Shown here: piece by piece, positions 14,018 to 60,620 of the stretch
Position numbering within the stretch: the first letter of the stretch is position 1
Layout: each line of letters begins with the position of its first letter
Source: Candidatus Latescibacterota bacterium
Lineage (GTDB): Bacteria > Latescibacterota > UBA2968 > GCA-2709665
Length of the DNA stretch: 64,000 nucleotides
Assembly: GCA_963662665.2 (NCBI GenBank)
Contig: CAXXJS010000010.1
Span: forward strand, 384,001-448,000
Reading direction: 5' to 3'
Notes under the pieces: generated by a model
The model's database searches: none
Seen by the model: only the letters and a program-made list of their open reading frames with translations
What the model was told of the DNA's origin: nothing
Program-made: the position numbers and the translations under genes

Positions 14018-14761
14018 ATGGACCAGGAACAGAAATATCTCTTCGACCTGCAGGGTTATATCGTACTTGAACAGGTGGTACCGCCGGCGCTGGTAGCGGC
14101 CTGCAACGCCGCGCTCGACCGGTTCGAGGCCATGGAGGCGGCGGATTACCCTCCGCCGGTGGTATTGGGCCAGGAGCGCACGCCGGAGAACCTCTATATT
14201 TCAAACATCATGGAGGGCGACGACGCGTTTCTGCCGCTGATGGAACTTCCCGAATTGCTGGATGCCGTCGAAGGCGTCACAGGCGGTCCGTACCGTCTCA
14301 ACCACACGTACACCATCTATCGCTGGGGCGGCGGCTATACGGGAATGCACATGCACGGCACGCCGATCCTCCCCAAATGCCAGTATCGTTGCCGCAACGG
14401 CCAGATGGTGTCGACCCTGACCAAGGCGGTCTTCCCAATGCTCGATTGCGGGCCCGAAGACGGCTGCTTCGCGGTCATCCCGGGGGCGCACAAGAGCAAT
14501 TTTGCAAAACCCTGGGGCGGCCACCCCAGTGAAAACCCGCCCCTGCAGGCCGTTCCGGCGCGCGCCGGCGACGCCATTCTGTTCACGGAAGCGCTCACTC
14601 ACGGGTCCACGGTAAACGTGTCCGGACGCCCGCGTCGCTCGCTCTATTATTGCTACAGCATCGGCTATATGCCCGATTGGGGCGGCCAGCACCTGCGCTT
14701 CAGCCCCGGCCTGGCCGACCGTCTCAGCCCGTCACAACAGGAGATTATCGCGCTGAAATAG
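14018..14761 (+). CDS. PhyH family protein, HGT variant
   Basis: FDLQGYIVL, GCFAVIPGAHK, AGDAILFTEALTHGS, RRS; the HxD position reads MHGT. Confidence 0.85.
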   Translation: MDQEQKYLFDLQGYIVLEQVVPPALVAACNAALDRFEAMEAADYPPPVVLGQERTPENLYISNIMEGDDAFLPLMELPELLDAVEGVTGGPYRLNHTYTIYRWGGGYTGMHMHGTPILPKCQYRCRNGQMVSTLTKAVFPMLDCGPEDGCFAVIPGAHKSNFAKPWGGHPSENPPLQAVPARAGDAILFTEALTHGSTVNVSGRPRRSLYYCYSIGYMPDWGGQHLRFSPGLADRLSPSQQEIIALK

Positions 14762-19257: not shown

Positions 19258-20931
19258 ATGGGAAAACTCGTCAAGACGCTCATTCGGATGAAGGGATACG
19301 GGCTGGCGCGGAAGCTCGACCGCGCCGCCGAACGCCCACACGCCGCGCAGAACGCCTTTCTGCTCCGCCAGACAAAGGCCAACGCCAACACGGCATTCGG
19401 AAAGGACCATGGTTTCGCCGCAATCCGCACGGAAGCCGACTACCGTCGTCAGGTCCCCATCCGGGACTACGAAGGGCTGCGTCCCTACGTCAACCGGATT
19501 ATCGCGGGCGAGCAGGCGGTACTCACGTCGGCCGCGCCACGGATGCTGAACATGACGAGCGGGACCACGGGCGAACCGAAATACATCCCCGTTACGCCCG
19601 ACTCCATGCGCCTCGCCTCCGGCTTCTCCCTGGAATGGATCTATCGCGCGCTGCATGACCATCCCACGTTCCTGGACGGCGCCTTTGTGGGTATTGTCAG
19701 CCGGGCGATCGAGGGTCGTACATCAGCCGGACTTCCTTACGGCAGCGCGTCCGGGATGCTCTATCAGCGAATCCCCGGGCCGATTCGAAGCACCTACGCG
19801 ATTCCTTACGCGGTTTCCGAGATCAAGGACTACGATCGCCGTTATTTCATTGCCGCGCGCCTGGCGCTGGCCAGGCGTGTTACGTACATCGGCACACCCA
19901 ATCCAAGCACGCTTGTCCGTCTGGCCGAAACCGCAATACAAAACGCCGATGCCATTGTTCGCGCCGTTCACGACGGCACGCAGGGGATCGATTTGCCGGA
20001 CCAGCCGGAACTGGCCGTGCAACTGTCCGCCCACGTGAAACCGGACCCGGAACGTGCGCGGGTCCTGGAGGACACAGTGAGACGGACAGGGGCGCTTCGT
20101 CCTGCGGACTGCTGGCCCAACCTGAAACTCATCGGGTGCTGGCTGGGCGGCAGCGTGGGCGTTCAGGCCCGAAAGTTACCGGAATATTACGGCGACGTCC
20201 CCATGCGCGACCTGGGCTTTCTGGCCAGCGAAGGACATTTCACCCTTCCGAACCGGGACCATTCCGCCTCGGGCATCCTTTCGCTGAACGGCAACTACTA
20301 CGAGTTTATACCGGAGGCATCGTTGGATGAACGGAATCCACCGGTACTGTCCAGCCACGAACTGGAATCAGGCATGAACTACGCGGTCCTGCTGACCACC
20401 CCCGGCGGCCTGTACCGCTACGATATTCACGATATCGTACAAGTGACGGGGTTCTATCGGAATGCCCCGTTACTGGCCTTTATCCGGAAGGGCCGCGACA
20501 TGACGAGCATCACGGGCGAGAAGATGCACGTAAACCATCTGCTACTGGCGCTGGAGGAGGTCCGCCGCCGATATGACGTATCGGTGGTCGAACAGTTCCG
20601 GGTGGTGGCGAACGTGGAGGCGCGCCGGTACGAAATCTACGCGGAATTCAAGGGGGAGGTTGCGCGGGATCTGCTCAGAGACGAAGTGATTCCCCATCTG
20701 GATCGCGCGTTGGCAGGGGTCAACGTGGAGTATGCGGAGAAGCGCCGCTCGCGAAGGCTGGCGCCGCCTTGTATTCATCTGATGCGCCGGGGCTGGGCCG
20801 AAGACGAGGTGCTGCGCGCCGCGGGCGCGGGGAAGCGGGATATTCAGTACAAGTGGCGGATTCTCTGCGCCGAGCCCACAGAGGAAGACGTTGGCGCCAT
20901 ACTCTACACGCTCGAAGCGGAGGAGGAGTAG
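19258..20931 (+). CDS. GH3-family acyl-acid amido synthetase-like protein
   Basis: TAFGKDHGF, VPIRDYE, TSGTTGEPKYIP, FLASEG, YYEFIP, TTPGGLYRYDIHD. Confidence 0.9.
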   Translation: MGKLVKTLIRMKGYGLARKLDRAAERPHAAQNAFLLRQTKANANTAFGKDHGFAAIRTEADYRRQVPIRDYEGLRPYVNRIIAGEQAVLTSAAPRMLNMTSGTTGEPKYIPVTPDSMRLASGFSLEWIYRALHDHPTFLDGAFVGIVSRAIEGRTSAGLPYGSASGMLYQRIPGPIRSTYAIPYAVSEIKDYDRRYFIAARLALARRVTYIGTPNPSTLVRLAETAIQNADAIVRAVHDGTQGIDLPDQPELAVQLSAHVKPDPERARVLEDTVRRTGALRPADCWPNLKLIGCWLGGSVGVQARKLPEYYGDVPMRDLGFLASEGHFTLPNRDHSASGILSLNGNYYEFIPEASLDERNPPVLSSHELESGMNYAVLLTTPGGLYRYDIHDIVQVTGFYRNAPLLAFIRKGRDMTSITGEKMHVNHLLLALEEVRRRYDVSVVEQFRVVANVEARRYEIYAEFKGEVARDLLRDEVIPHLDRALAGVNVEYAEKRRSRRLAPPCIHLMRRGWAEDEVLRAAGAGKRDIQYKWRILCAEPTEEDVGAILYTLEAEEE

Positions 20932-20992
20932 CAGGAAGCAGATGTGAGCGGTCAGTTTTCAGCCGTCAGCTTGAAGCAAGATCGAAAATCAG

Positions 20993-21022
20993 CTCACACG
21001 AAGACGCCAGGACGCAAAGAGA
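20993..21022. repeat. Octamer-periodic intergenic repeat, copy 2
   Basis: CTCACACGAAGACGCCAGGACGCAAAGAGA; compare 14781-14810. Confidence 0.6.
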
Positions 21023-21036
21023 AACAAACGAAAAGC

Positions 21037-21061
21037 GGGCAACCACAAGGGTTGCCCCTAC
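21037..21061 (-). repeat. GTAG-type REP-like hairpin
   Basis: Minus strand GTAGGGGCAACCCTTGTGGTTGCCC. Confidence 0.7.
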
Positions 21062-21185
21062 GAACGCAATTTGCACGCGGGCGGACCCACGCGAATCCAC
21101 CAGGATGAACTCCCCTGACGACCTTCAGTCCGCACGCTGGTGTGGACGGGGCTATTGTTCGTGGCAAAAAACCGGCTCCGTGCAC

Positions 21186-22547
21186 CTACTCGCGCCGGTG
21201 AACCGTCATCGGCATCCCGTGGAGCGGCCATGTCTTCACGTCCATAGACGGTTCTACGGGATGGCCGGGAACAAGTTCAAGCCGATACTGCCGTATCGCC
21301 ATCGACAGCACAAGCGCGGCTTCCAGCATCGCGAAATTGGCGCCCAGGCAGATCCGGGGCCCGGCGCTGAAGGGCAGGTAGGCGTAGCGGGAGCGTCGTT
21401 CCGTCTGCTCCGGGGTGAATCGTTCCGGGTCGAACCTCGCCGGTTTTTCCCAGAGGGCCGGATGGCGCTGCGTGATATAGGGACTCACGAGCACCAATGA
21501 CCCTGCAGGAATGTGGTACCCGTCGATCTCGTCGTCGGCCGCGGCCTCACGGACGATCACCTTGATCGGCGGGTACAGCCGCATCGCTTCCTGGAACACC
21601 ATACGTGCGTATTGGAGACGCTGGACAGCCGCGAAAGTCGGCAGGTCTCCATTCAGTACCGAATGCTGTTCCTTCCATAACACTCCCTCCGCCTGCCGAT
21701 GTCGATCCAGCAGGTACCACGTCCAGGTGAGGGCGTGCATTGTTGTCTGATACCCCGCAACGAAGAGCGTTACCAGTTCGTCACGCAGTTGCAGCCGATC
21801 CATCCGCTCGCCGGTTTTCTCGTCGCGGGCGCCCAGCAGTACCGAGAGCAGATCCTCCTCCACGGGACGGTCTCGCCGTTCGTCTATACGCGCTTCGACG
21901 TATTGGTGGATGTCGTTCAGGCATTGCTTGAACCGGCGGTTCGCGGGCGTGGGGACGAACATGGGCGGCGCGATCAGATCGGCCGAACGCCGGTCGATAA
22001 ACCCCACGCAGTACTGGAACGCTTCGTCGATTCGCGACGTCTCATCGTTCAGGTCCCTGCTGAAGAGAATACGGACGATGATATTTCCCGTAAGGCGCGC
22101 CATTTCCTCGTCGACCTGGATCACGTGCTTTCCGTCCGCAAGGGGCTCCCAACGCGCAAGCATGTCGCGGATCGCGTTCACCATAACATTCACGAATCGC
22201 ATCGTGCCCCTGGGCGTGAATAACGGCTGCATGATCCGGTGCTGGCGCTCCCAGAGTTCTCCTTCGCTCGTAATCAGGCCTTCGCCCAGCAGAAGCTTCT
22301 GGTCGTCGTAACCATAACCCTTGAAATAGGTTCGCCTCCCTCGTACAAGTACGTGTTCGATATGCTCCGGGCGGGTGACCAGGTGCACCGTCTTGCCACG
22401 GATGTTCAGCCGGACTACGTCGCCGAAACTGGACCAGGCATCCATCAGATACCCGATCGGGTCCTTCCGGAACGGAAGCACGCAGCCCAGAAAGGGCAGC
22501 CCACGCGGTCCGGGGGCGAGGGTCCTGACGGCTGTTGGATCAGGCAT
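21186..22547 (-). CDS. Cytochrome P450
   Basis: PGP hinge, VAGYQTT (I-helix), EAMR (ExxR), PERF, FSAGPRICLG (heme Cys). Confidence 0.95.
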   Translation of the reverse strand: MPDPTAVRTLAPGPRGLPFLGCVLPFRKDPIGYLMDAWSSFGDVVRLNIRGKTVHLVTRPEHIEHVLVRGRRTYFKGYGYDDQKLLLGEGLITSEGELWERQHRIMQPLFTPRGTMRFVNVMVNAIRDMLARWEPLADGKHVIQVDEEMARLTGNIIVRILFSRDLNDETSRIDEAFQYCVGFIDRRSADLIAPPMFVPTPANRRFKQCLNDIHQYVEARIDERRDRPVEEDLLSVLLGARDEKTGERMDRLQLRDELVTLFVAGYQTTMHALTWTWYLLDRHRQAEGVLWKEQHSVLNGDLPTFAAVQRLQYARMVFQEAMRLYPPIKVIVREAAADDEIDGYHIPAGSLVLVSPYITQRHPALWEKPARFDPERFTPEQTERRSRYAYLPFSAGPRICLGANFAMLEAALVLSMAIRQYRLELVPGHPVEPSMDVKTWPLHGMPMTVHRRE

Positions 22548-22625
22548 GGTCCATCCAACCCTTGTTCAACCCGCTCCGGCAAGGCGCCGGCCTTTGATCC
22601 GGCCCACCCAGGTTGGCCGCGGGCT

Positions 22626-23900
22626 TCACTTGGGGATTTCCGAGGTCAGAATACGGGGGTCCGCCGCGGTGACGAGCACGTTGTCCTCGATACGGACGCC
22701 GCCCACATCCCGCCAGGACGCCAGTGCGTCCCAGTCGACCACTCCAGCGAAGCGTTCGCGCCGCTCAGGGTCGTCGAGCAATGCCGGCACGAAATACACC
22801 CCGGGCTCAACGGTCATCAGGTAGTTTTCCTCCAGCGGCAGGTCGATGCGCATCCGGATGCCGCAATAGACGCTGACTTCACGCCCGGCCGTCCGGCCGC
22901 CCACGTCCCGGACGCCAAGGCCGACCATGTGGCCGACGCCGTGGGGCAGGAAGAGCGAAATGGCGCCGGTGTCGAGGACGGCGTCCGGTTTCTCTCTGAA
23001 AATGCCCAGGTCGCGAAGCCCAAGTGCGATCACGGCGGCGGCGGCCCGGTGTACTTCGTGCCACTCGACCCCTTTCCGGCAGGTGGAGATGGCCTCCAGC
23101 TGAGCGGCAAGAACGAGGTCGTAGATGGCCTGCTGCCGGGGCGTGAAACGGTCTCCGGCGGGGTAGGTGCGGGTGACGTCGGCGGTGTAGCCGGCGATGG
23201 ATGCGCCGGCGTCGATGAGGACCAGGTCGTCCGGTTCCACAGTCCGGGCGCCGGGTTCGAAATGAAGCACGGCCGCGTGGGTTCCCGCGCCGACGATAGT
23301 GTCGAAGGCCACGTCGTCGGCGCCGTGCCGGTACATTTCGGCTTCAAGTTCAATGCGGATCCGGCGTTCGCTGACGCCCGGCTGTATGGTTTCGCGGGCT
23401 CTCGCGTGGCCGGCCGCGGTTGCTCCCGCCGCCCGTTCGATCAGTGCGACCTCGGCCTTGTCCTTGCGGCGGCGGACTTCGTCAAGGGAAACCTGAAGCG
23501 CCGCCACCCGTTGATGTTCGCTTTCTACGTTGTCCACCGCGGCGCCAATGACCGCGATGGGGCGGCCTGAGCGTGTGACCAGCCAACGCGGGAGTTCGGC
23601 GACGTCCTCGCCCTCGACCGTTTCCGTGCCGCCTTCCCACAGCCGTTCGTTCTGTGAAACCGGTCGCACGAAGTGCCTCCAGCCGTCCTGCGGATCATAG
23701 GCGAGTACGCCGCCCCAACGTCTGGATCCGGTGAGCCAGTAGTATTCGGGGTAGGGGACGAACGGATAGGTCTGGTCCTGCCCTCCGGGAATCTGAACCG
23801 GCTTCCCGGCGCCGAAGAGCACGATTGGCGGGTCGTCTCCGAATGCGCCGGAAGCACGCTGCCGCCTGCGTTCCAGCACGTCATTCTCGAATATGGACAT
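22626..23900 (-). CDS. Xaa-Pro aminopeptidase (M24B)
   Basis: LIDAGA, YTADVTRT, PHGVGHMVGL, TVEPG, GVRIED. Confidence 0.9.
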   Translation of the reverse strand: MSIFENDVLERRRQRASGAFGDDPPIVLFGAGKPVQIPGGQDQTYPFVPYPEYYWLTGSRRWGGVLAYDPQDGWRHFVRPVSQNERLWEGGTETVEGEDVAELPRWLVTRSGRPIAVIGAAVDNVESEHQRVAALQVSLDEVRRRKDKAEVALIERAAGATAAGHARARETIQPGVSERRIRIELEAEMYRHGADDVAFDTIVGAGTHAAVLHFEPGARTVEPDDLVLIDAGASIAGYTADVTRTYPAGDRFTPRQQAIYDLVLAAQLEAISTCRKGVEWHEVHRAAAAVIALGLRDLGIFREKPDAVLDTGAISLFLPHGVGHMVGLGVRDVGGRTAGREVSVYCGIRMRIDLPLEENYLMTVEPGVYFVPALLDDPERRERFAGVVDWDALASWRDVGGVRIEDNVLVTAADPRILTSEIPK

Positions 23901-23909
23901 GGTATCTTC

Positions 23910-24686
23910 TCAATTCGTTTTTCGGGTTGCCGCTTCGCGTTTGAAGATCAGGTTCTGAACGATTCCCTCCGTGTAGTCCACCGGGCTCGCGTTGGCGAGG
24001 GTGAATCCCTGATTGAAGAAGGCCGTTTCGATCTCTTGGGCCATGTTCTTGAACATGTACACTTCGATCAACACGGTTTTCAATCGCGCATCTTCTAGTG
24101 TCCGGGGAGCGCCGGCGACAATCTTGTCCTCGATGCCGTCGACGTCGATCTTCACGTGGTCGGGAAACGGCAGCCCGAATCGCCCGGTCAGGTCGTCCAG
24201 GGACACGGACATCGTCCCCTGCCGGTTCTGCGGCGAGAAGGGCACGGCGCCTTGCGTTACGGGTTCGCCCAGCGCATGCAGCGCCGCGCCGGGGGCAAAG
24301 GTTTTAGAGTAGAAGTGTTGTATTGACGTGCGATCCGATACGGCGATGGGATAGGCGGTGATAACCTCACCCAGACCGTTCAGCAGGATATTCCTGTTCA
24401 GTTTGGCCTGGTTCAGGGATTCCGGTTCAAAGGCGAGAACCCGCGCCCGCCCATTCAGTTTGCGAGCCGCGTACAGGGAATATTGGCCGATATTTGCGCC
24501 AACGTCGTAAATCGTCTCGCCGGGTTGGAACCAGGTATCAATCCAGTCCAGGGTATCGGGCTCTTTCTCATTGAAGGAATTCGCCCGCCAGAGTTCGTGG
24601 TTTCTGGAGCTCTCGCTTTCCCCGTCTGTTTCAACGTCGATGAGGATGGCCTGTTCCCGCACGTTGCACGTAATGGTTGTGCCCAA
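23910..24686 (-). CDS. FkbM family methyltransferase
   Basis: YDVGANIG, AFEPE, KIDVDG; TTG start with GAGG RBS. Confidence 0.88.
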   Translation of the reverse strand: MGTTITCNVREQAILIDVETDGESESSRNHELWRANSFNEKEPDTLDWIDTWFQPGETIYDVGANIGQYSLYAARKLNGRARVLAFEPESLNQAKLNRNILLNGLGEVITAYPIAVSDRTSIQHFYSKTFAPGAALHALGEPVTQGAVPFSPQNRQGTMSVSLDDLTGRFGLPFPDHVKIDVDGIEDKIVAGAPRTLEDARLKTVLIEVYMFKNMAQEIETAFFNQGFTLANASPVDYTEGIVQNLIFKREAATRKTN

Positions 24687-32023: not shown

Positions 32024-32147
32024 GTGGAACGCCCCTCGGATCGTTGTACGCTGCCCTCTCTTCCGGCATCCAAAATAGAAGAACCATGCAGGAAAATCAA
32101 GCCGCATATGCCGCGCATTGTCCCGGATCCGGGAAGTATATTTCGCC

Positions 32148-32176
32148 TTGACATCAATTCGGACCATCATCATATT
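32148..32176 (+). promoter_or_regulatory. Candidate sigma70 promoter
   Basis: TTGACA-N17-CATATT in the divergent intergenic region. Confidence 0.45.
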
Positions 32177-32315
32177 GGCCTTGATGATCGGGCGGAGGAC
32201 CCGTGAATTTTTCGTTCCGCTCAAAGTACCGGTGGCGGTCGATGCGCCATTCATTGGGGATATCCCGACAAAGGCGGACCACTTGTTCGCCCGTTGTTTC
32301 GAGAGGCGGTCTCCC

Positions 32316-33500
32316 GTGTCAGAATTCAAGAAAATAGCGGCAATTGTAACGACGTACTACCCGCGTTCGCACGCAGACGTCATTGTGACGAAGTTTTTGA
32401 AGGGATTTCCGTCGGATGACGGGTTGATACCGCCGCAGGTGGAAATCGCGTCCCTGTATATGGACCAGGTTCACGAGAATGACGTAGGGCTCGAACTGGC
32501 AAAGGAACACGGGGTGCCCGTCTACAACAGCATTCCGAAGGCACTGACGCTCGGTGGAGGGAAACTGGCGGTAGACGGCGTGTTGATTGTCGGCGAGCAC
32601 GGCGACTACGCCCGGAACGAGAAGGAGCAGCACATGTATCCGCGCCGGTTCTTCTTCGAGCAGGTTTGCGGGGTGTTTGCCGCGACCGGCAGGTCCGTTC
32701 CCGTGTTCAACGATAAACACCTGGCCTATGACTGGGGGAACTCAAAGTGGATGTACGACCGGGCGCAGTTGCTGAATGTTCCTTTCCTTGCCGGATCCTC
32801 CGTGCCGCTTGCCTGGCGAAATCCATATCTCGAATACGGGCTGGACACGCCTCTGGAAGAAGCGTTGTCAATCGGGTATTCGGGCCTGGACTCCTATGGA
32901 TTTCACGCGCTTGAACTCTTGCAGTGTATGGTCGAACGCAGGCGCGGCGGCGAGACCGGTATCGTTGCGGTGCAATGCCTGGAGGGAGATGCCGTGTGGC
33001 GGGCGGGGGACGAGGGGCGGTGGTCCCGCGAGCTTGCCGATGGCGCGCGTGAACCCATTGAAGCGAAGGTCGCGGGGGCAATGGAAGCCCACTGCCCCGA
33101 CCCGGCGGTCTTCCTGCTGGAATACGCCGACGGGTTGAAGGCTGCCACCCTGATGTTGAACGGATACACGCAGGGGTTCGGATACGCCGGCCGCGTTTCG
33201 GGTCGCGTCCGGGGGATGGAGGTGTTCCTGCCGGAAGACCCGCATGCCCATTTCAGCTATCTCAGCCGGAATATCCACGAACTCTTCATTACCGGCAAAC
33301 CGCCGTACCCGGTGGAACGTACACTGCTGGTGAGCGGGGCGCTGGATGCGCTGATGGATTCGCGCCACAGGGGGCACGCGCGGGTGGAGACGCCCAATCT
33401 CAGCGCAACCTACCGGTCTTACGATAGCCCTCCGATCCGGCCCACTGCGCCAAGGCCATCAGGTGCGAGCCTGGTTCCAATTGTGCCCTGGCGAAATTGA
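32316..33500 (+). CDS. Conserved hypothetical protein, distant Gfo/Idh/MocA-like oxidoreductase
   Basis: KIAAIVT...[33 protein letters not shown]; GTG start with GAGG RBS. Confidence 0.65.
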
Positions 33501-33604: not shown

Positions 33605-34606
33605 ATGTCATTGAACGCGGCGGTCATCGGACTGGGTGTGGGCAGGGGACATATCTCTGCCTACCGGGAAGCCGGTGCGGCGGTAACGGCGATTTGCGAT
33701 GTCAACGAGGAGATACTGGAACAAGTCGGGGAGGAGCAGGGGGTGCGGCGCCGATATACGGATTATCGCGACCTGGCGGGGCAGGATGACATTGACGTGG
33801 TGTCGATCTGCACGCCCGACCATTTGCACGCCGACCCGGCCGTTGAGATGATGGCCTCCGGGAAGCACGTGCTTGTGGAGAAGCCGCTGGCCACGTCCTT
33901 CGAGGATATCGAAAGAATCGTGCAGACGTCCCGACACACGGGGCGTAAGGTGTCCCACGGATGTCAGATCCGGTTCGACCCGACGTTTCAGGAGTTGAAA
34001 CGCCAGGTCGAGGCGGGGTCGTTCGGCCGGTTGTTTTACGCCGAAGCGGACTACATTTCAAACCACTTGAATCTGTTCCAGGAGGGATGGCGCGGCAGGC
34101 TGGGTCCCCGCTACAATGCGGCGGCCGGCGGCAGCGTTCATCCCGTTGACGTGATCCAATGGATTGTCGACTCGCCCGCGGCGGAGGTGGCGGCTTACGG
34201 AAATGCCATATCCGCCGGCTCGCACGGTCTGGACCTTACCGATTGCATCGTGGGTATCATCCGTTTTGAGAACGGGTGCGTGGCCAAGACGTTTACAACA
34301 ATGGGTTCGGCCCGGCCCGGGTTTCGCAATGTGCAGATTTACGGCACGCGCAAGACGTTTCTAACCGCACAGGCGCCCCCCGCCCGTCTGGTCTCGGATC
34401 TGCAGAGCCGGAAATGGAAGCCCATTGAGGTTGCGGACGATGGCGGCGACAGCCGGCGGACGCTGATAGAAGACCTGCTGCAAGCGATAGAAAACGACAC
34501 GGAGCCGCAGGTGAATCTGGTGCAGTCCGTCCGCACGGCGGGAATCTGCGTGGCGCTTTTTGAATCGGTGCGCTCGGGCAAGCCGGTGGCCGTACCCGGA
34601 TTCTGA
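33605..34606 (+). CDS. Gfo/Idh/MocA oxidoreductase
   Basis: VIGLGVG, ICTPDHLH, GKHVLVEKP, HPVD. Confidence 0.92.
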   Translation: MSLNAAVIGLGVGRGHISAYREAGAAVTAICDVNEEILEQVGEEQGVRRRYTDYRDLAGQDDIDVVSICTPDHLHADPAVEMMASGKHVLVEKPLATSFEDIERIVQTSRHTGRKVSHGCQIRFDPTFQELKRQVEAGSFGRLFYAEADYISNHLNLFQEGWRGRLGPRYNAAAGGSVHPVDVIQWIVDSPAAEVAAYGNAISAGSHGLDLTDCIVGIIRFENGCVAKTFTTMGSARPGFRNVQIYGTRKTFLTAQAPPARLVSDLQSRKWKPIEVADDGGDSRRTLIEDLLQAIENDTEPQVNLVQSVRTAGICVALFESVRSGKPVAVPGF

Positions 34607-34645
34607 CGTCCCGGGCAATACCATACACCAGCACGGAGTGTCGAG

Positions 34646-34990
34646 GTGGGCCTGGAGACGGTGGAAAATCCCCAGCCGGGCAGGTCGTATACAGTCGAGT
34701 TTGTCTTCCCGGAATTCACGGCCGTCTATCCGGTAACGAATGAGCCGTTTTTTGCGACGGTCACGATTCGGTACGTACCGTCCGCCAGGTGTATCGAAAC
34801 CGTATCGCTCAAACGGTATTTGGGATCATTCCGGAATGAGACGCTGCCTTACGAGGGGGCTGTCAACCGGATTCTGGATGATCTGGTCGCGGCGTGTCAC
34901 CCTGCCAGGATGGCGGTGATCGCCGAGTTCACGGTGCGAGGGGGAATTGCAACAACGGTAACCGTGGATGCGGCAGAAGCCGGGGAATAG
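34646..34990 (+). CDS. QueF paralogue lacking catalytic Cys and Asp
   Basis: Aligns end to end with the downstream QueF, but reads EFTAVYPVTNEPFF against EFTSLCPLTGQPDF. Confidence 0.8.
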   Translation: MGLETVENPQPGRSYTVEFVFPEFTAVYPVTNEPFFATVTIRYVPSARCIETVSLKRYLGSFRNETLPYEGAVNRILDDLVAACHPARMAVIAEFTVRGGIATTVTVDAAEAGE

Positions 34991-35026
34991 AACCGGTGCT
35001 GCGTTTTTCAGATCAGGGGGGCCGGC

Positions 35027-35407
35027 TTGCAGGCCGAGGCGAGTAAAATCCTGGAGGTCTTCGGGAATCCGCGACCGGAACGTCGGTACAAGATCGAGTT
35101 TACGTGCCGGGAATTCACTTCCCTGTGTCCCCTTACGGGGCAGCCGGATTTCGCCACGATCGTGGTGCGTTACGTGCCGGGTGAGAAGTGCGTGGAACTC
35201 AAGTCGCTCAAGCACTACTTCAGATCGTTTCGCGACAGGGGTGTCTTCTTTGAAGACGTGACGAACCGGATTCTGGACGATCTGGTACTGGTATGCGCTC
35301 CCGTGGAGATGGTGGTGGTTGGCCGGTTCAACGTCAGGGGCGGGATCGGACACGAAATCATCGCGCAATACGACCGCGAGCGAGGGGAACGTAGCGAGAC
35401 GGGATGA
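35027..35407 (+). CDS. queF: NADPH-dependent preQ0 reductase (unimodular)
   Basis: EFTSLCPLTGQPDFA, VELKSLK (QueF motif), NRILDDL, FNVRGGI. Confidence 0.9.
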   Translation: MQAEASKILEVFGNPRPERRYKIEFTCREFTSLCPLTGQPDFATIVVRYVPGEKCVELKSLKHYFRSFRDRGVFFEDVTNRILDDLVLVCAPVEMVVVGRFNVRGGIGHEIIAQYDRERGERSETG

Positions 35408-52959: not shown

Positions 52960-53922
52960 TCAGCAGATCATGCCCTGTTTCGCGCGAATTCCATGCGCGG
53001 GAGGGCTGGCCCCGATCCAGCGTTCGTCCTGGGGTTCGGAGGCGAGTTGATAGCGGGAGTCCGAGGAAATGCGGATGCGGTCCGTGTGGTTGTCCGAACT
53101 GGCGTGCAGCGTATGCATGGAGAAGACGAGCACGTCGCCCAATTTGTAGTCCGCCGTCAGCCAACGGCCGCCAAGGTCGTTTCGAGCCTGAATGGCGTCG
53201 GACGCATACGAACCGGTGGAATTCCAGTTTATCAGGGACTGTTCCTCGCCCGTGAGATCGCGTTTCCGCACCCTGGCGGTTTCAACGATCCGTCTGGCCC
53301 GATTTTCGTTTTCGCAGTATTTGTCAACATCGGTACGTGCATAGGTGTGCTGCAGGCGTTCGCTCCTGTGGGAGTTTTCCAGGATGATCAGGCCGCCCAT
53401 TTCAAATGGTACGTCGCCCAGCGGGGTCCAGGAGGTGTAGAGGTTGGGGGTGCCGCGGCCCATATAGACCACGTCGTAGTGGGGTTGGGTGGGCGACGCA
53501 ATTCCTGGAGCTTTGACACGAAACCATGTGTAGTCGAAATGGGTGACGGGACCGCCCAGGAAGCTTTCGTAGAACCTGATCATGGGTCCATCGTAGAGAA
53601 TCTTCATCAGCGGCGGATTGTTGAGCGTGAAGTCGAACATGGTGCCGAGCCCGCCGCCCGGCTTGTATTTCCCTTCGATAAGCGGAAGCGTTTCGTCCAC
53701 GGATCCCAGCCCGGCGAGGCGCATCATCACTTCAAGGCGCGCCGCCAGCGCTTCGTCCGGGTCGAGTAGACCGGGCAGGTAGAGGTAGCCGTCATCGGCC
53801 ATGCGGGCGTGGAGCGCGGCAACATCGTGGGAAATGTCGTCCGAACGTCGCAACTCGCCGGCGTCGTTAACGGATCCAACCAGCGGTTTTCCGCGAAAGG
53901 TCAGGTCGAGCAGGGCGCCCAT
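52960..53922 (-). CDS. PhyH family dioxygenase (canonical HxD)
   Basis: DGYLYL, PHYDVVYM, WTPLGD, GDVLVF, TLHAS, RISSDSRY. Confidence 0.88.
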   Translation of the reverse strand: MGALLDLTFRGKPLVGSVNDAGELRRSDDISHDVAALHARMADDGYLYLPGLLDPDEALAARLEVMMRLAGLGSVDETLPLIEGKYKPGGGLGTMFDFTLNNPPLMKILYDGPMIRFYESFLGGPVTHFDYTWFRVKAPGIASPTQPHYDVVYMGRGTPNLYTSWTPLGDVPFEMGGLIILENSHRSERLQHTYARTDVDKYCENENRARRIVETARVRKRDLTGEEQSLINWNSTGSYASDAIQARNDLGGRWLTADYKLGDVLVFSMHTLHASSDNHTDRIRISSDSRYQLASEPQDERWIGASPPAHGIRAKQGMIC

Positions 53923-58716: not shown

Positions 58717-59688
58717 TTACAAGGGTAACGCAATCCCTATTTCCCGCTCCACCGCACGGCGGTAGACCAGAATCGCAGTGGCCATGTCCTCCAGTCCCAG
58801 GCCCAGATTGATCGCAATCGTGCGTTCGCTGTCCGACTCCCGCCCGGGTTTCAGCCCTGCCGCGATTTCACCCAGGTCTGCATACGGCTCGGGAGTCCCG
58901 GCGAAATAGCCGGTCTGGCGGTAATAATCCAACTGATCGGAATCGTCGCTTACCAGTTTGTCCGCTTCGCGGAACGCATCGGCCCGAAAGTAGGAATCGA
59001 AGTCCAGCGGACAGGCGAAAGTCCCCTCGGACAACCAGCCGCTGCCCACCACCGGATCGGGACGCTTCCGAACCGGGCCGCTGGTAACCACGATGTCCAG
59101 CCCCTTGATAGCATCGGAGACGTTACGAACCGGCTCGATCCGAACTCCCATCCGGGGCCCCATTTCCGCGGCGAATCGATCAGCGAGATCCGGATAAAGA
59201 TCGAAGGCCTTGACTTCCTGAATATCGAAAACACACGACAGCGCTTCGAGATTGCCGCGACCCTGGACGCCACAGGCGACAATGCCAACGGTAGAGCTGT
59301 CGTTGCGTGCCAGATACTTCGCGGCAACCGCCGTTGCCGCTCCCGTTCGCATCGCCGTAATCCATGTGCAATCCATAACGCAAATGGGAACGCCGGTTTC
59401 AGGATCGTTCAGAATCAGCAATCCACTAATGTACGGCAACCCCTTCTTCTGATTTTCCGGATACCCGGATACCCATTTCATTCCTGCAGATTCAAGGCTC
59501 GGAATATACGCAGGCATCGCATGAATAAAAGCATCCGGCTGCGTATGGATACCCGGTTTGGGCGGCATTTCAACTCTACCTTCACCTTTTTCCACAAACA
59601 TCCGGTCCAGGCCGTCGATAATCTCCGCCATCGACAGGTTCACCGCTTCCACGTCACTTTTCGAGAGATATAATACTGAATCCGGCAT
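58717..59688 (-). CDS. Ornithine cyclodeaminase / mu-crystallin family protein
   Basis: HAMPA, KWVS, ITAMRTGA, GVQG, GLGLED. Confidence 0.9.
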   Translation of the reverse strand: MPDSVLYLSKSDVEAVNLSMAEIIDGLDRMFVEKGEGRVEMPPKPGIHTQPDAFIHAMPAYIPSLESAGMKWVSGYPENQKKGLPYISGLLILNDPETGVPICVMDCTWITAMRTGAATAVAAKYLARNDSSTVGIVACGVQGRGNLEALSCVFDIQEVKAFDLYPDLADRFAAEMGPRMGVRIEPVRNVSDAIKGLDIVVTSGPVRKRPDPVVGSGWLSEGTFACPLDFDSYFRADAFREADKLVSDDSDQLDYYRQTGYFAGTPEPYADLGEIAAGLKPGRESDSERTIAINLGLGLEDMATAILVYRRAVEREIGIALPL

Positions 59689-59837
59689 TGGCTGCTCCCG
59701 TGGGAAACTTGATCTCAGATCCGATGTTCGTTATCTTCTATCCATCGCCTCGGTTTCAACCGGCGGTGACGCTTTCTGCGTTTTCTCGGTTATCAGGCTG
59801 GAAAACGAGGACCCCGTCCACGATCGAAAGAAGCGAC

Positions 59838-60620
59838 ATGGAATCCATCACGGACGAACAGTGGGAACAATTCGAAAGTAACGGTTATCTCCGCCTCGGC
59901 AGGATCGCTGACTCGGTGGAAGCGCTAAGTCGTCGGATTGACGACATTATGCTGGGTACGGCTCCGCTGGATTACAGTTGCATGCTGATGCAACTGGACG
60001 TTGTTGACGGCCGGAAGGGACCGGGACCCCAGACCAGGGGTCACAAGGGGGCCACGTTGAACTACCGGAAAATTCAGGAACTGGAGTTCGACGACCTCTT
60101 TCTAGCCTATATGCAGAAACCGCTATTTCGCAGCATCTGCGCCCGGGCCTACGGGCCGGAAGCGCCTGTAGCGTGCTTCCGTGCAATGTTTATGAACAAA
60201 CCCGCCGGAAAAGGCCACGACCTTACCTGGCACCAGGACCACTGGACCGACCTCGACCGGGATCCGCTCGTTACCGTCTGGACGGCTTTGGATCCTGCCA
60301 CCATAGAAAACGGCTGCGTCAAAATCATACCCGGTTCACACAAATGGGGTCTGGTCAACCCCGAAAATGCGAGCGGATTTCTCAGTTCTGAGCAGATCGA
60401 CGAACGGACGCGAATGGCAGAGCAGGTCTACCTCGAACTCAACGCGGGTGAAGTCGTACTCTTGCACAACTGGATGTTGCACAGTTCCGGCACAAATCAT
60501 ACCAACGTTCCCCGAAGGGCGTTCAGCACCTGTTATATGCACGCGGCAACAAAATCAGCACGCGGCCACACATTTTCTGTGATTTTCGGAGAAGATGCAT
60601 TATCGCCGAAACCCCTGTGA
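59838..60620 (+). CDS. PhyH family dioxygenase (canonical HQD)
   Basis: FESNGYL, NKPA, WHQD, TVWTALD, IPGSH, MLHSSGTN, RRA. Confidence 0.9.
   Translation: MESITDEQWEQFESNGYLRLGRIADSVEALSRRIDDIMLGTAPLDYSCMLMQLDVVDGRKGPGPQTRGHKGATLNYRKIQELEFDDLFLAYMQKPLFRSICARAYGPEAPVACFRAMFMNKPAGKGHDLTWHQDHWTDLDRDPLVTVWTALDPATIENGCVKIIPGSHKWGLVNPENASGFLSSEQIDERTRMAEQVYLELNAGEVVLLHNWMLHSSGTNHTNVPRRAFSTCYMHAATKSARGHTFSVIFGEDALSPKPL

Follow-up and report, generated by a model that had tools for sequence, protein, structure and literature searches.

What does a QueF protein do once it has lost the residues of QueF chemistry, and why would its gene be kept directly upstream of an intact queF? The question is raised by a tandem pair of queF genes in a 64-kb stretch of DNA from a Candidatus Latescibacterota bacterium (contig CAXXJS010000010.1; 64,000 nt, referred to below as the window), in which the upstream gene, copy 1, encodes a QueF paralog without the catalytic cysteine and the downstream gene, copy 2, a canonical unimodular QueF. 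QueF, an enzyme of the queuosine pathway, is the only known biological nitrile reductase, and a relative devoid of the corresponding residues invites an explanation other than the annotated one. Copy 1 is best explained as a non-catalytic, ligand-binding QueF partner that is co-expressed, and probably co-assembled, with copy 2; this reading is given a probability of about 0.45, and we infer the ligand binding, co-transcription, co-assembly and regulation that it comprises. An earlier note on this DNA had described the two open reading frames (ORFs) as a tandem pair 36 nt apart, the first of them intact, and both descriptions are borne out (Table 1), the frame of copy 1 being open in all 13 genomes in which it was found.

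Both products belong to the QueF family by the usual models. PF14489 (cut-off 27.3 bits) scores copy 1 at 91.4 and copy 2 at 104.1 bits, and TIGR03139, the NCBIfam equivalog for unimodular preQ1 synthase (cut-off 86.9), scores them at 126.9 and 158.9 bits, respectively. The two proteins align to each other without gaps over 103 residues at 49% identity (E 1e-37), and ungapped alignments of each copy to the Bacillus subtilis enzyme (PDB 4f8b; E 7e-30 for copy 2) provide the residue correspondences used here, in which numbers such as Cys55 are those of B. subtilis QueF. The AlphaFold2 model of copy 1 is a predicted T-fold with a predicted local distance difference test score (pLDDT) of 88.3, which Foldseek superposes on 4f8b_A with a template modelling score (TM) of 0.90 and a root-mean-square deviation of 1.3 Å, and copy 1 thus modelled appears to have kept the T-fold. 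A search of the ESM Atlas for look-alikes returned ordinary QueF clusters only.

In the account given in PMC13740343, a review of 2026, QueF uses Cys55 as its nucleophile and Asp62 as its proton donor, Glu97 contacts N1 and N2 of preQ0 and Glu78 contacts N9, Phe33, Phe95 and Ile130 stack on the base, and the vcQueF lysine aligned with Lys80 holds the 2'-phosphate of reduced nicotinamide adenine dinucleotide phosphate (NADPH); the QueF motif and the residue roles are also described in PMC5372742. Copy 1 has tyrosine at the position of the thioimide-forming Cys55 (Tyr28, codon 34727-34729, in AVYP), phenylalanine at the Asp62 position (Phe35, codon 34748-34750, in EPFF) and valine at the Lys80 position (Val53, codon 34802-34804, in ETVSLK, which stands in place of E(S/L)KSLK), and it keeps Glu78, Glu97 (its Glu70), NRILDDL and VRGGI. 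These losses and retentions had been read off in the earlier note and agree with the alignment to 4f8b, and the catalytic disarming claimed there proves to be wider, as two stacking residues (Phe33, Phe95) and two loop residues (Gly59, Gln60) are missing as well. Measured against the QueF motif, E(S/L)K(S/A)hK(L/Y)(Y/F/W), the copy 1 sequence ETVSLKRY fits at five of eight positions. Judged by these residues, copy 1 is no longer equipped for nitrile reduction of preQ0: the catalytic chemistry appears to be gone along with the stacking and a contact to the cofactor, and the two carboxylates that would read the 2-aminopyrimidinone ring are retained.

These changes are a property of a clade rather than of one protein. 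Columns were compared among 41 copy-1-type, 26 copy-2-type and 274 canonical QueF sequences, the last picked by their Cys...Asp pattern and hence 100% conserved at those two residues by construction. At the Cys55 position the 41 copy-1-type sequences have Tyr (71%), Leu (22%) or His (5%), with Arg in copy 1 of one related locus (L003); Asp62 is replaced by Val in 98%, Lys80 by Val in 100% and Gln60 by Glu in 98%; Phe33 is replaced by Val or Thr, Phe95 by Ser in 73%, Gly59 by Asn or Ser, and Gly93 by Ala, Thr or Ser. The positions so changed (33, 55, 59, 60, 62, 80, 93 and 95) are near-invariant in canonical QueF. Retained throughout are Glu97 (41 of 41), Glu78 (95%), S81, L82, K83, Y85, R90, N101, I103, DDL, F122 and RGG, and Gly87 is invariant in the clade where other QueFs have a bulky residue. 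Across 29 clade sequences 37 columns are invariant, the most conserved stretch being the motif helix, with V53, S54, L55, K56, Y58, L59 and G60 of copy 1 all unchanged. Because the replacement residues are themselves fixed, copy 1 seems to have entered a new constrained state rather than to be drifting, and since Glu97 would serve only copy 1's own pocket, its invariance points to ligand binding rather than to scaffolding.

Copy 2 is ordinary by comparison. Its Cys34 (SLCP), Asp41 (QPDF), ELKSLK and Glu76 (at the Glu97 position) are confirmed by the 4f8b alignment, the first three having been noticed before, and ELKSLKHY fits seven of the eight motif positions. Its Phe at the His96 position has a counterpart in the gkQueF H96F variant, which PMC13740343 lists as still active, and that position is Tyr in 84 of the best 120 matches (of 990) in the protein search described below. 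By its sequence copy 2 would be a working preQ0 reductase. Set against the 274 canonical QueFs, the copy-2 clade has some fixed peculiarities of its own, namely Arg or Ser at Pro49, Phe at His96, Glu115, His130 and Glu131.

The extent of the Cys-less clade was judged from a search of 5.8 billion clustered proteins (clusters at 90% identity), which gave 990 matches, the best 120 of which were examined. Twenty-nine clusters among these 120 (P0001-P0029; 61-83% identity to copy 1) are all without the cysteine, with Tyr, Leu or His at its position; Asp62 is replaced in them by Val or Phe, and Lys80 by Val. P0030 stands between the two types, having the Tyr but also the Asp, and the remaining 90 are canonical. 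Together with P0030, three further proteins, P0242 (Tyr and Ile at the Cys and Asp positions), P0253 (Tyr and Cys) and P0378 (Ser and Ala), make up a set of Cys-less QueF homologs of 109-129 amino acids outside the main clade. In a quick IQ-TREE phylogeny (101 rows, 121 columns kept; support by the Shimodaira-Hasegawa-like approximate likelihood ratio test, SH-aLRT; cited branches unstarred) the copy-1 clade has a support of 87, and 93 when grouped with P0030, P0242 and P0253, and copy 2 lies in a separate group of 39 canonical QueFs with a support of 94. The placement of copy 2 in a separate group and the 49% identity of the two proteins indicate that the duplication is old and that copy 1 is not a recent tandem copy.

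The same pair recurs in related genomes, where the earlier note had proposed to look for it. A genome scan yielded 59 pattern matches, 12 of which encode a relative, all in metagenome-assembled genomes with Latescibacterota or Gemmatimonadota in their titles. Each of these 12 loci (13 of 13 with the window, where the gap is 36 nt) has the Cys-less ORF followed directly 3' by a canonical QueF ORF, which begins 10-34 nt past the copy 1 stop or overlaps it, so that copy 1 is not strain-specific. The common neighbourhood reads, in order, short-chain dehydrogenase/reductase, aminotransferase, a gene of unknown type, Gfo/Idh/MocA-family oxidoreductase, copy 1 and copy 2, with the Gfo/Idh/MocA gene directly 5' of copy 1 in all 12 loci and annotated flanking genes at 71-96% identity. 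The downstream genes are common to 11 of the 12; the most distant locus, L012, keeps the upstream block and the pair and has other genes downstream. Searches with tblastn of phages and plasmids gave 23 and 58 records, each with one match below 60% identity, and no tandem pair among them.

Selection on the pair was estimated from pairwise ratios of nonsynonymous to synonymous substitution rates (dN/dS; Nei-Gojobori) among 13 sequences, or 78 pairs, of which those with 0 < dS < 3 were usable, the dropped pairs having saturated dS and involving L012. Copy 1 has a median dN/dS of 0.231 (68 of 78 pairs; dS range about 0.2-0.95) and copy 2 one of 0.181 (67 of 78 pairs), and the near-identical pair L006/L008 (dS 0.023) gives 1.06 for copy 1. 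Copy 1 is under purifying selection and clearly constrained, with a dN/dS of 0.23 and not near 1, the value that the earlier note had named, for a strain-specific copy 1, as speaking against its reading. In having lost its catalytic residues while under purifying selection, it has the marks of a pseudoenzyme.

Fused proteins bear on a possible partnership of copy 1 with its neighbour. When 1.84 billion representatives were searched with a profile, 4201 matches at E <= 0.001 resulted, the best 150 of which were examined. One of them, P0241 (304 amino acids), has a Cys-less N domain, where Thr replaces the Cys, Val replaces the Asp and Glu97 is kept, and a canonical C domain, that is, the same order as the window pair. 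TIGR03139 matches it twice and TIGR03138, the model for bimodular QueF, scores it at 75, far under the cut-off of 293. In BLASTP the N domain aligns with copy 1 at 36% identity (E 3e-18) and yields no copy 2 match at E <= 1, and all of 61 unimodular sequences align to the C domain of P0241 only. Such a fused dead-plus-live form would lend some support to a physical partnership of the two proteins. A second two-domain protein, P0289 (282 amino acids), likewise consists of two T-folds of unimodular type, with two TIGR03139 matches (180.7 bits) and a TIGR03138 score of 82.6 against 293. In its N domain the Cys is replaced by Asn and the Asp by Phe, with the motif ESKSLKLY intact, and its C domain has the Cys and the Asp with a degenerate motif; P0289 may be an independently evolved bimodular QueF. 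Longer proteins in which a relative of copy 1 is fused to something else were also sought, and 148 candidates yielded only three hits, all of them helix-turn-helix (HTH)-QueF proteins with Cys and Asp intact. P0390, P0391 and P0392 (207-209 amino acids) join an XRE-type HTH (PF01381, PF13560) to a complete unimodular QueF domain with ELKSLK or ELKALK intact, and might be an enzyme-regulator or a preQ0-sensing repressor.

The two proteins of the window were also submitted to complex prediction, which scored copy 2 with copy 1 at 0.35 and the best of three controls at 0.00, a result that may show likeness only, as a similar complex, the B. subtilis QueF homodecamer, has been solved. The runs agreed in 100% of contacts and the partner had a pLDDT of at least 89. 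Of 157 solved complexes 116 attain the mark applied, as do 2 of 215 mismatched pairs, counts that hold roughly for predictions from our own alignments, and scores of 0.60 or less comprise only 18 of the 157 solved complexes together with both of the mismatches that passed. The prediction weakly favours a contact between copy 1 and copy 2.

How such a contact might look depends on the architecture of known QueFs. In unimodular QueF, ten active sites are placed at subunit interfaces, and in bimodular QueF the active site is placed between the N module, with the QueF motif, and the C module, with Cys, Asp and Glu (PMC5372742, PMC13740343); B. subtilis QueF is described as forming pentameric rings (PMC13740343), two of which are joined by C-terminal tails via metal ions (PMC5372742). 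By homology, an interface in unimodular QueF would then pair the Cys side of one subunit with the motif side of its neighbour. At 114 and 126 amino acids, neither of the two window proteins has room for a long C-terminal tail.

Several observations weigh against a partnership, or limit what the evidence for it can bear. Copy 2 appears to have every element for work as a homo-oligomer and would not require a partner. A mixed interface made of the Cys side of copy 2 and the motif side of copy 1 would have everything except the NADPH lysine, and the reverse, the Cys side of copy 1 with the motif side of copy 2, would have both glutamates and no nucleophile. Since a ring of the B. subtilis type is pentameric, strict alternation of two subunit types is impossible; a copy 2 ring stacked on a copy 1 ring would be a possible way around the odd number. 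A mirror-tree comparison of copy 1 and copy 2, with the background of eight neighbouring genes removed and L012, which is without the downstream genes, left out, gave a partial r of 0.02 (rank 29 of 45 gene pairs) and so no sign of correlated evolution, though short proteins from 12 taxa make this a weak test. The fused form P0241 is one representative sequence only, which the tree puts inside the copy-1 clade on a branch as long as 4.7 changes per column; the N domain of P0241 scores almost alike with the copy-1 profile (66.3 bits) and a broad canonical profile (65.7; copy-2 profile, 44.5), and the fold of the whole protein predicted from the single sequence has a pLDDT of 38.9 and a predicted TM of 0.30. 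Copy 1 is the fastest-evolving of ten neighbourhood proteins, with a mean distance of 0.232 compared with 0.058-0.169 for the others. Finally, the 12 related loci share about 12 kb of synteny and are therefore not independent but represent one lineage.

With these points weighed, the non-catalytic partner remains the preferred account of copy 1. Copy 2 would reduce preQ0, which copy 1, an old paralog, could not, and the two would be made from one transcript. Copy 1 would act as a non-catalytic subunit or accessory whose remodelled pocket binds preQ0 or preQ1 without covalent chemistry, most likely in mixed or stacked rings with copy 2, where it might tune, buffer or sense substrate or product. 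A more specific version, in which queuosine biosynthesis in this lineage employs a heteromeric T-fold nitrile reductase whose copy 1 pseudo-sites bind preQ0 or preQ1 non-covalently and control the catalytic sites allosterically or pass the product on, is advanced only tentatively and is on balance unlikely. If true, it would represent a bacterial arrangement of the 'prozyme' type and the first heteromeric QueF, and P0241 and P0289 would be snapshots of two-module QueFs arising from unimodular ones.

The alternative that survives best is that copy 1 is a stand-alone, homo-oligomeric binder of a 7-deazaguanine (preQ0, preQ1 or a salvage base) which forms no stable complex with copy 2 and serves as a buffer, as a carrier toward tRNA-guanine transglycosylase or as a sensor. 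Retention of Glu78 and Glu97 within a newly fixed pocket set (Glu60, Val62, Val80 and Gly87) fits this alternative, as do a copy 2 that is fully canonical and needs no partner, the missing co-evolution signal, and a duplication old enough to have left time for the interfaces to diverge. The XRE-HTH-QueF fusions make a tie to gene regulation conceivable, though Cys and Asp are kept there. It is harder to reconcile with the tandem, near-overlapping arrangement, which is strict in 13 of 13 genomes, with the dead-plus-live fusion P0241 and, weakly, with the complex prediction; moreover, loss of both stacking phenylalanines would weaken the binding of a base. A free-standing binder is considered possible and rather doubtful.

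A new T-fold activity, one of the options in the earlier note, is disfavoured and appears improbable. Copy 1 would be an enzyme acting on a purine, pterin or deazapurine through a pocket with Tyr55, Glu60 and Tyr96 and without covalent catalysis, and both the purifying selection and the fixation of the replacement residues could be read in this way; T-fold paralogs do change chemistry, QueF-L and the QueD-derived DpdL being examples given in PMC10516641. However, no single residue has become fixed in place of the Cys, Tyr, Leu, His and, in L003, Arg all occurring there, and this variation disfavours a catalytic role for the tyrosine. Most of the changes, furthermore, turn polar catalytic residues into aliphatic ones (Asp to Val, Lys to Val), Glu60 is the only new invariant polar residue, and no other que or modification gene was found among the 54 scanned ORFs of the window.

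The earlier note had also proposed an unfused counterpart of the bimodular type, and this does not fit the residues. In such a pair copy 2 would contribute Cys, Asp and Glu97 and copy 1 the motif helix, and it is indeed the motif helix that is most conserved in copy 1, with Glu78 also kept there; P0289 suggests, in addition, that domains of the unimodular YkvM type can evolve a split of this kind. The pair likewise resembles the bimodular YqcD-type QueF of Vibrio cholerae and Escherichia coli (3BP1) in having two T-fold modules of unequal catalytic content side by side. The resemblance ends where the halves should complement each other. Copy 2 has a complete motif, leaving nothing for copy 1 to supply, and all 41 copy-1-type sequences carry Val in place of Lys80, at the position aligned with the lysine that holds the NADPH 2'-phosphate in vcQueF; as copy 2 holds both halves and copy 1, without the Cys, the Asp and the motif lysine, is defective in both, the split is not complementary. 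Bimodular QueF has two T-folds in one chain, whereas the window modules are separate genes divided by a stop codon and the 36-nt spacer, and both score far under the TIGR03138 cut-off of 293.45 bits (copy 1, 46.1; copy 2, 54.5). An unfused bimodular enzyme is accordingly regarded as distinctly improbable. Least of all is copy 1 likely to be a decaying or strain-specific duplicate, or annotation noise, as its rapid evolution within the neighbourhood and the loss of all catalytic residues might have suggested, because the Cys-less clade, the paired loci, the low dN/dS over an appreciable range of dS and the fixed replacements all speak otherwise, as do the intact frames, the 37 invariant columns and the confident predicted fold.

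Compared with systems described before, the pair is closest to the unimodular YkvM-type QueF of B. subtilis (4F8B), to which both copies correspond in family and fold, copy 2 in all hallmarks and copy 1 in Glu78, Glu97 and the core of the motif helix; they differ in that copy 1 is without Cys55, Asp62, Lys80, Phe33 and Phe95 and both copies are without the long C-terminal tail. QueF-L, the archaeosine synthase (5JYX), is presented in PMC10516641 as a unimodular QueF paralog without NADPH-dependent reduction, and copy 1 resembles it in being a unimodular paralog without the reductase machinery. QueF-L, however, keeps the Cys and forms a thioimide, as the title of 5jyx states, whereas copy 1 is without this Cys; its model is only 15% identical to 5jyx, and in sequence searches 5jyx matched copy 2 only (E 0.0088). 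A more distant parallel is offered by dead-paralog 'prozymes' such as that of trypanosome S-adenosylmethionine decarboxylase, described in PMC5201418 and PMC6221367, where a dead paralog is likewise kept by selection beside an active enzyme. The prozymes belong to another fold, another pathway and other organisms, and for the window pair complex formation and activation are putative. The report in a 2025 proteomics study that Synechocystis QueF (Slr0711) is an RNA-binding protein validated by ultraviolet crosslinking (PMC12475003) means that a role of the QueF fold beyond catalysis would not be without precedent.

A search of the literature open without subscription found no paper on a Cys-less or a tandem QueF, and the role that copy 1 probably has, that of a non-catalytic partner or of a binder of ligands, would be one so far undescribed for QueF. 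The source databases name members of its clade preQ1 synthase or 7-cyano-7-deazaguanine reductase, and because copy 1 exceeds the NCBIfam equivalog cut-off and clade members are already so named, annotation pipelines would label every one of them an enzyme. A conserved clade without the nucleophile implies that the label 'preQ1 synthase' is wrong for some members of the family. The pair would also offer a natural system for asking in what way T-fold rings put up with dead subunits or turn them to use, and by what route two-module QueFs could evolve. Binding of preQ0 or preQ1 by copy 1, if it occurs, would provide a new protein-level handle on the homeostasis of queuosine precursors. These statements reach no further than one narrow, uncultured group of Latescibacterota-type genomes, and the mechanism behind them is a proposal.

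The layout of the locus (Table 1) is consistent with joint expression of the pair. No promoter-like or terminator-like site was found in the spacer between copy 1 and copy 2, and no terminator-like site in the gap between the Gfo/Idh/MocA gene and copy 1; by this spacing the Gfo/Idh/MocA gene may be co-transcribed with copy 1, an arrangement of interest as neighbour context only, and one in which L012 shares. The window was scanned with Pfam at E <= 1e-5 over 54 ORFs (a greedy non-overlapping set, each of at least 100 amino acids), and no other que gene was detected among them, in accordance with what had been noted from the sequence before; an Rfam scan of the whole window gave no family at its gathering score, hence no preQ1 riboswitch. 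The 460-residue ORF upstream of the Gfo/Idh/MocA gene is kept in all 12 related loci, being 34% identical in L012 and 58-70% identical elsewhere.

Table 1. Coordinates of the tandem queF locus and adjoining features (positions within the window)
Feature	Position	Strand	Remarks
460-residue ORF	32118..33500	+	No Pfam match at E <= 0.001; 5' of the Gfo/Idh/MocA gene
Gfo/Idh/MocA-family oxidoreductase	33605..34606	+	Assigned by Pfam; ends 39 nt 5' of copy 1
Shine-Dalgarno-like GGAG	34635..34638	+	7 nt 5' of the copy 1 GTG; read from the sequence
Copy 1, Cys-less QueF paralog	34646..34990	+	ORF, 114 amino acids, GTG start
Shared tract in copy 1	34865..34887	+	23 nt, encodes NRILDDLV
Spacer between copy 1 and copy 2	34991..35026	+	36 nt
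G-rich Shine-Dalgarno-like run (G6)	35016..35021	+	5 nt 5' of the copy 2 TTG
Copy 2, canonical unimodular QueF	35027..35407	+	ORF, 126 amino acids, TTG start
Shared tract in copy 2	35264..35286	+	23 nt, one mismatch to the copy 1 tract; encodes NRILDDLV

The DNA tracts shared by the two genes, to which the earlier note had drawn attention, exist as such and carry no information on their history. The longest exact run within the tract is 14 nt. When synonymous codons were resampled 5000 times by local codon usage, 8% of the rounds produced a run of at least that length (P = 0.08), which is within chance; the two genes are 57.6% identical overall in nucleotides and 44% at third positions. Gene conversion was considered as the origin of the tract and was rejected on the strength of the run length and the third-position identity. 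Because the identical peptide and codon bias explain the tract, it is uninformative on recent exchange.

Elsewhere in the window, a GH3-family adenylating enzyme, a cytochrome P450 and an FkbM-type methyltransferase are grouped at 19258-24683 and may form a small-molecule modification cluster. Three genes for PhyH-family dioxygenases were found (14018-14761, 52960-53922 and 59688-60620), and around them lie many sugar-acid and oxidoreductase genes, including two of the enolase superfamily, two of the Gfo/Idh/MocA family and two HIBADH-like genes. On the minus strand, a 198-residue ORF at 11188-11787 matches the Zeta_toxin and AAA_33 kinase-like domains (E 7e-11).

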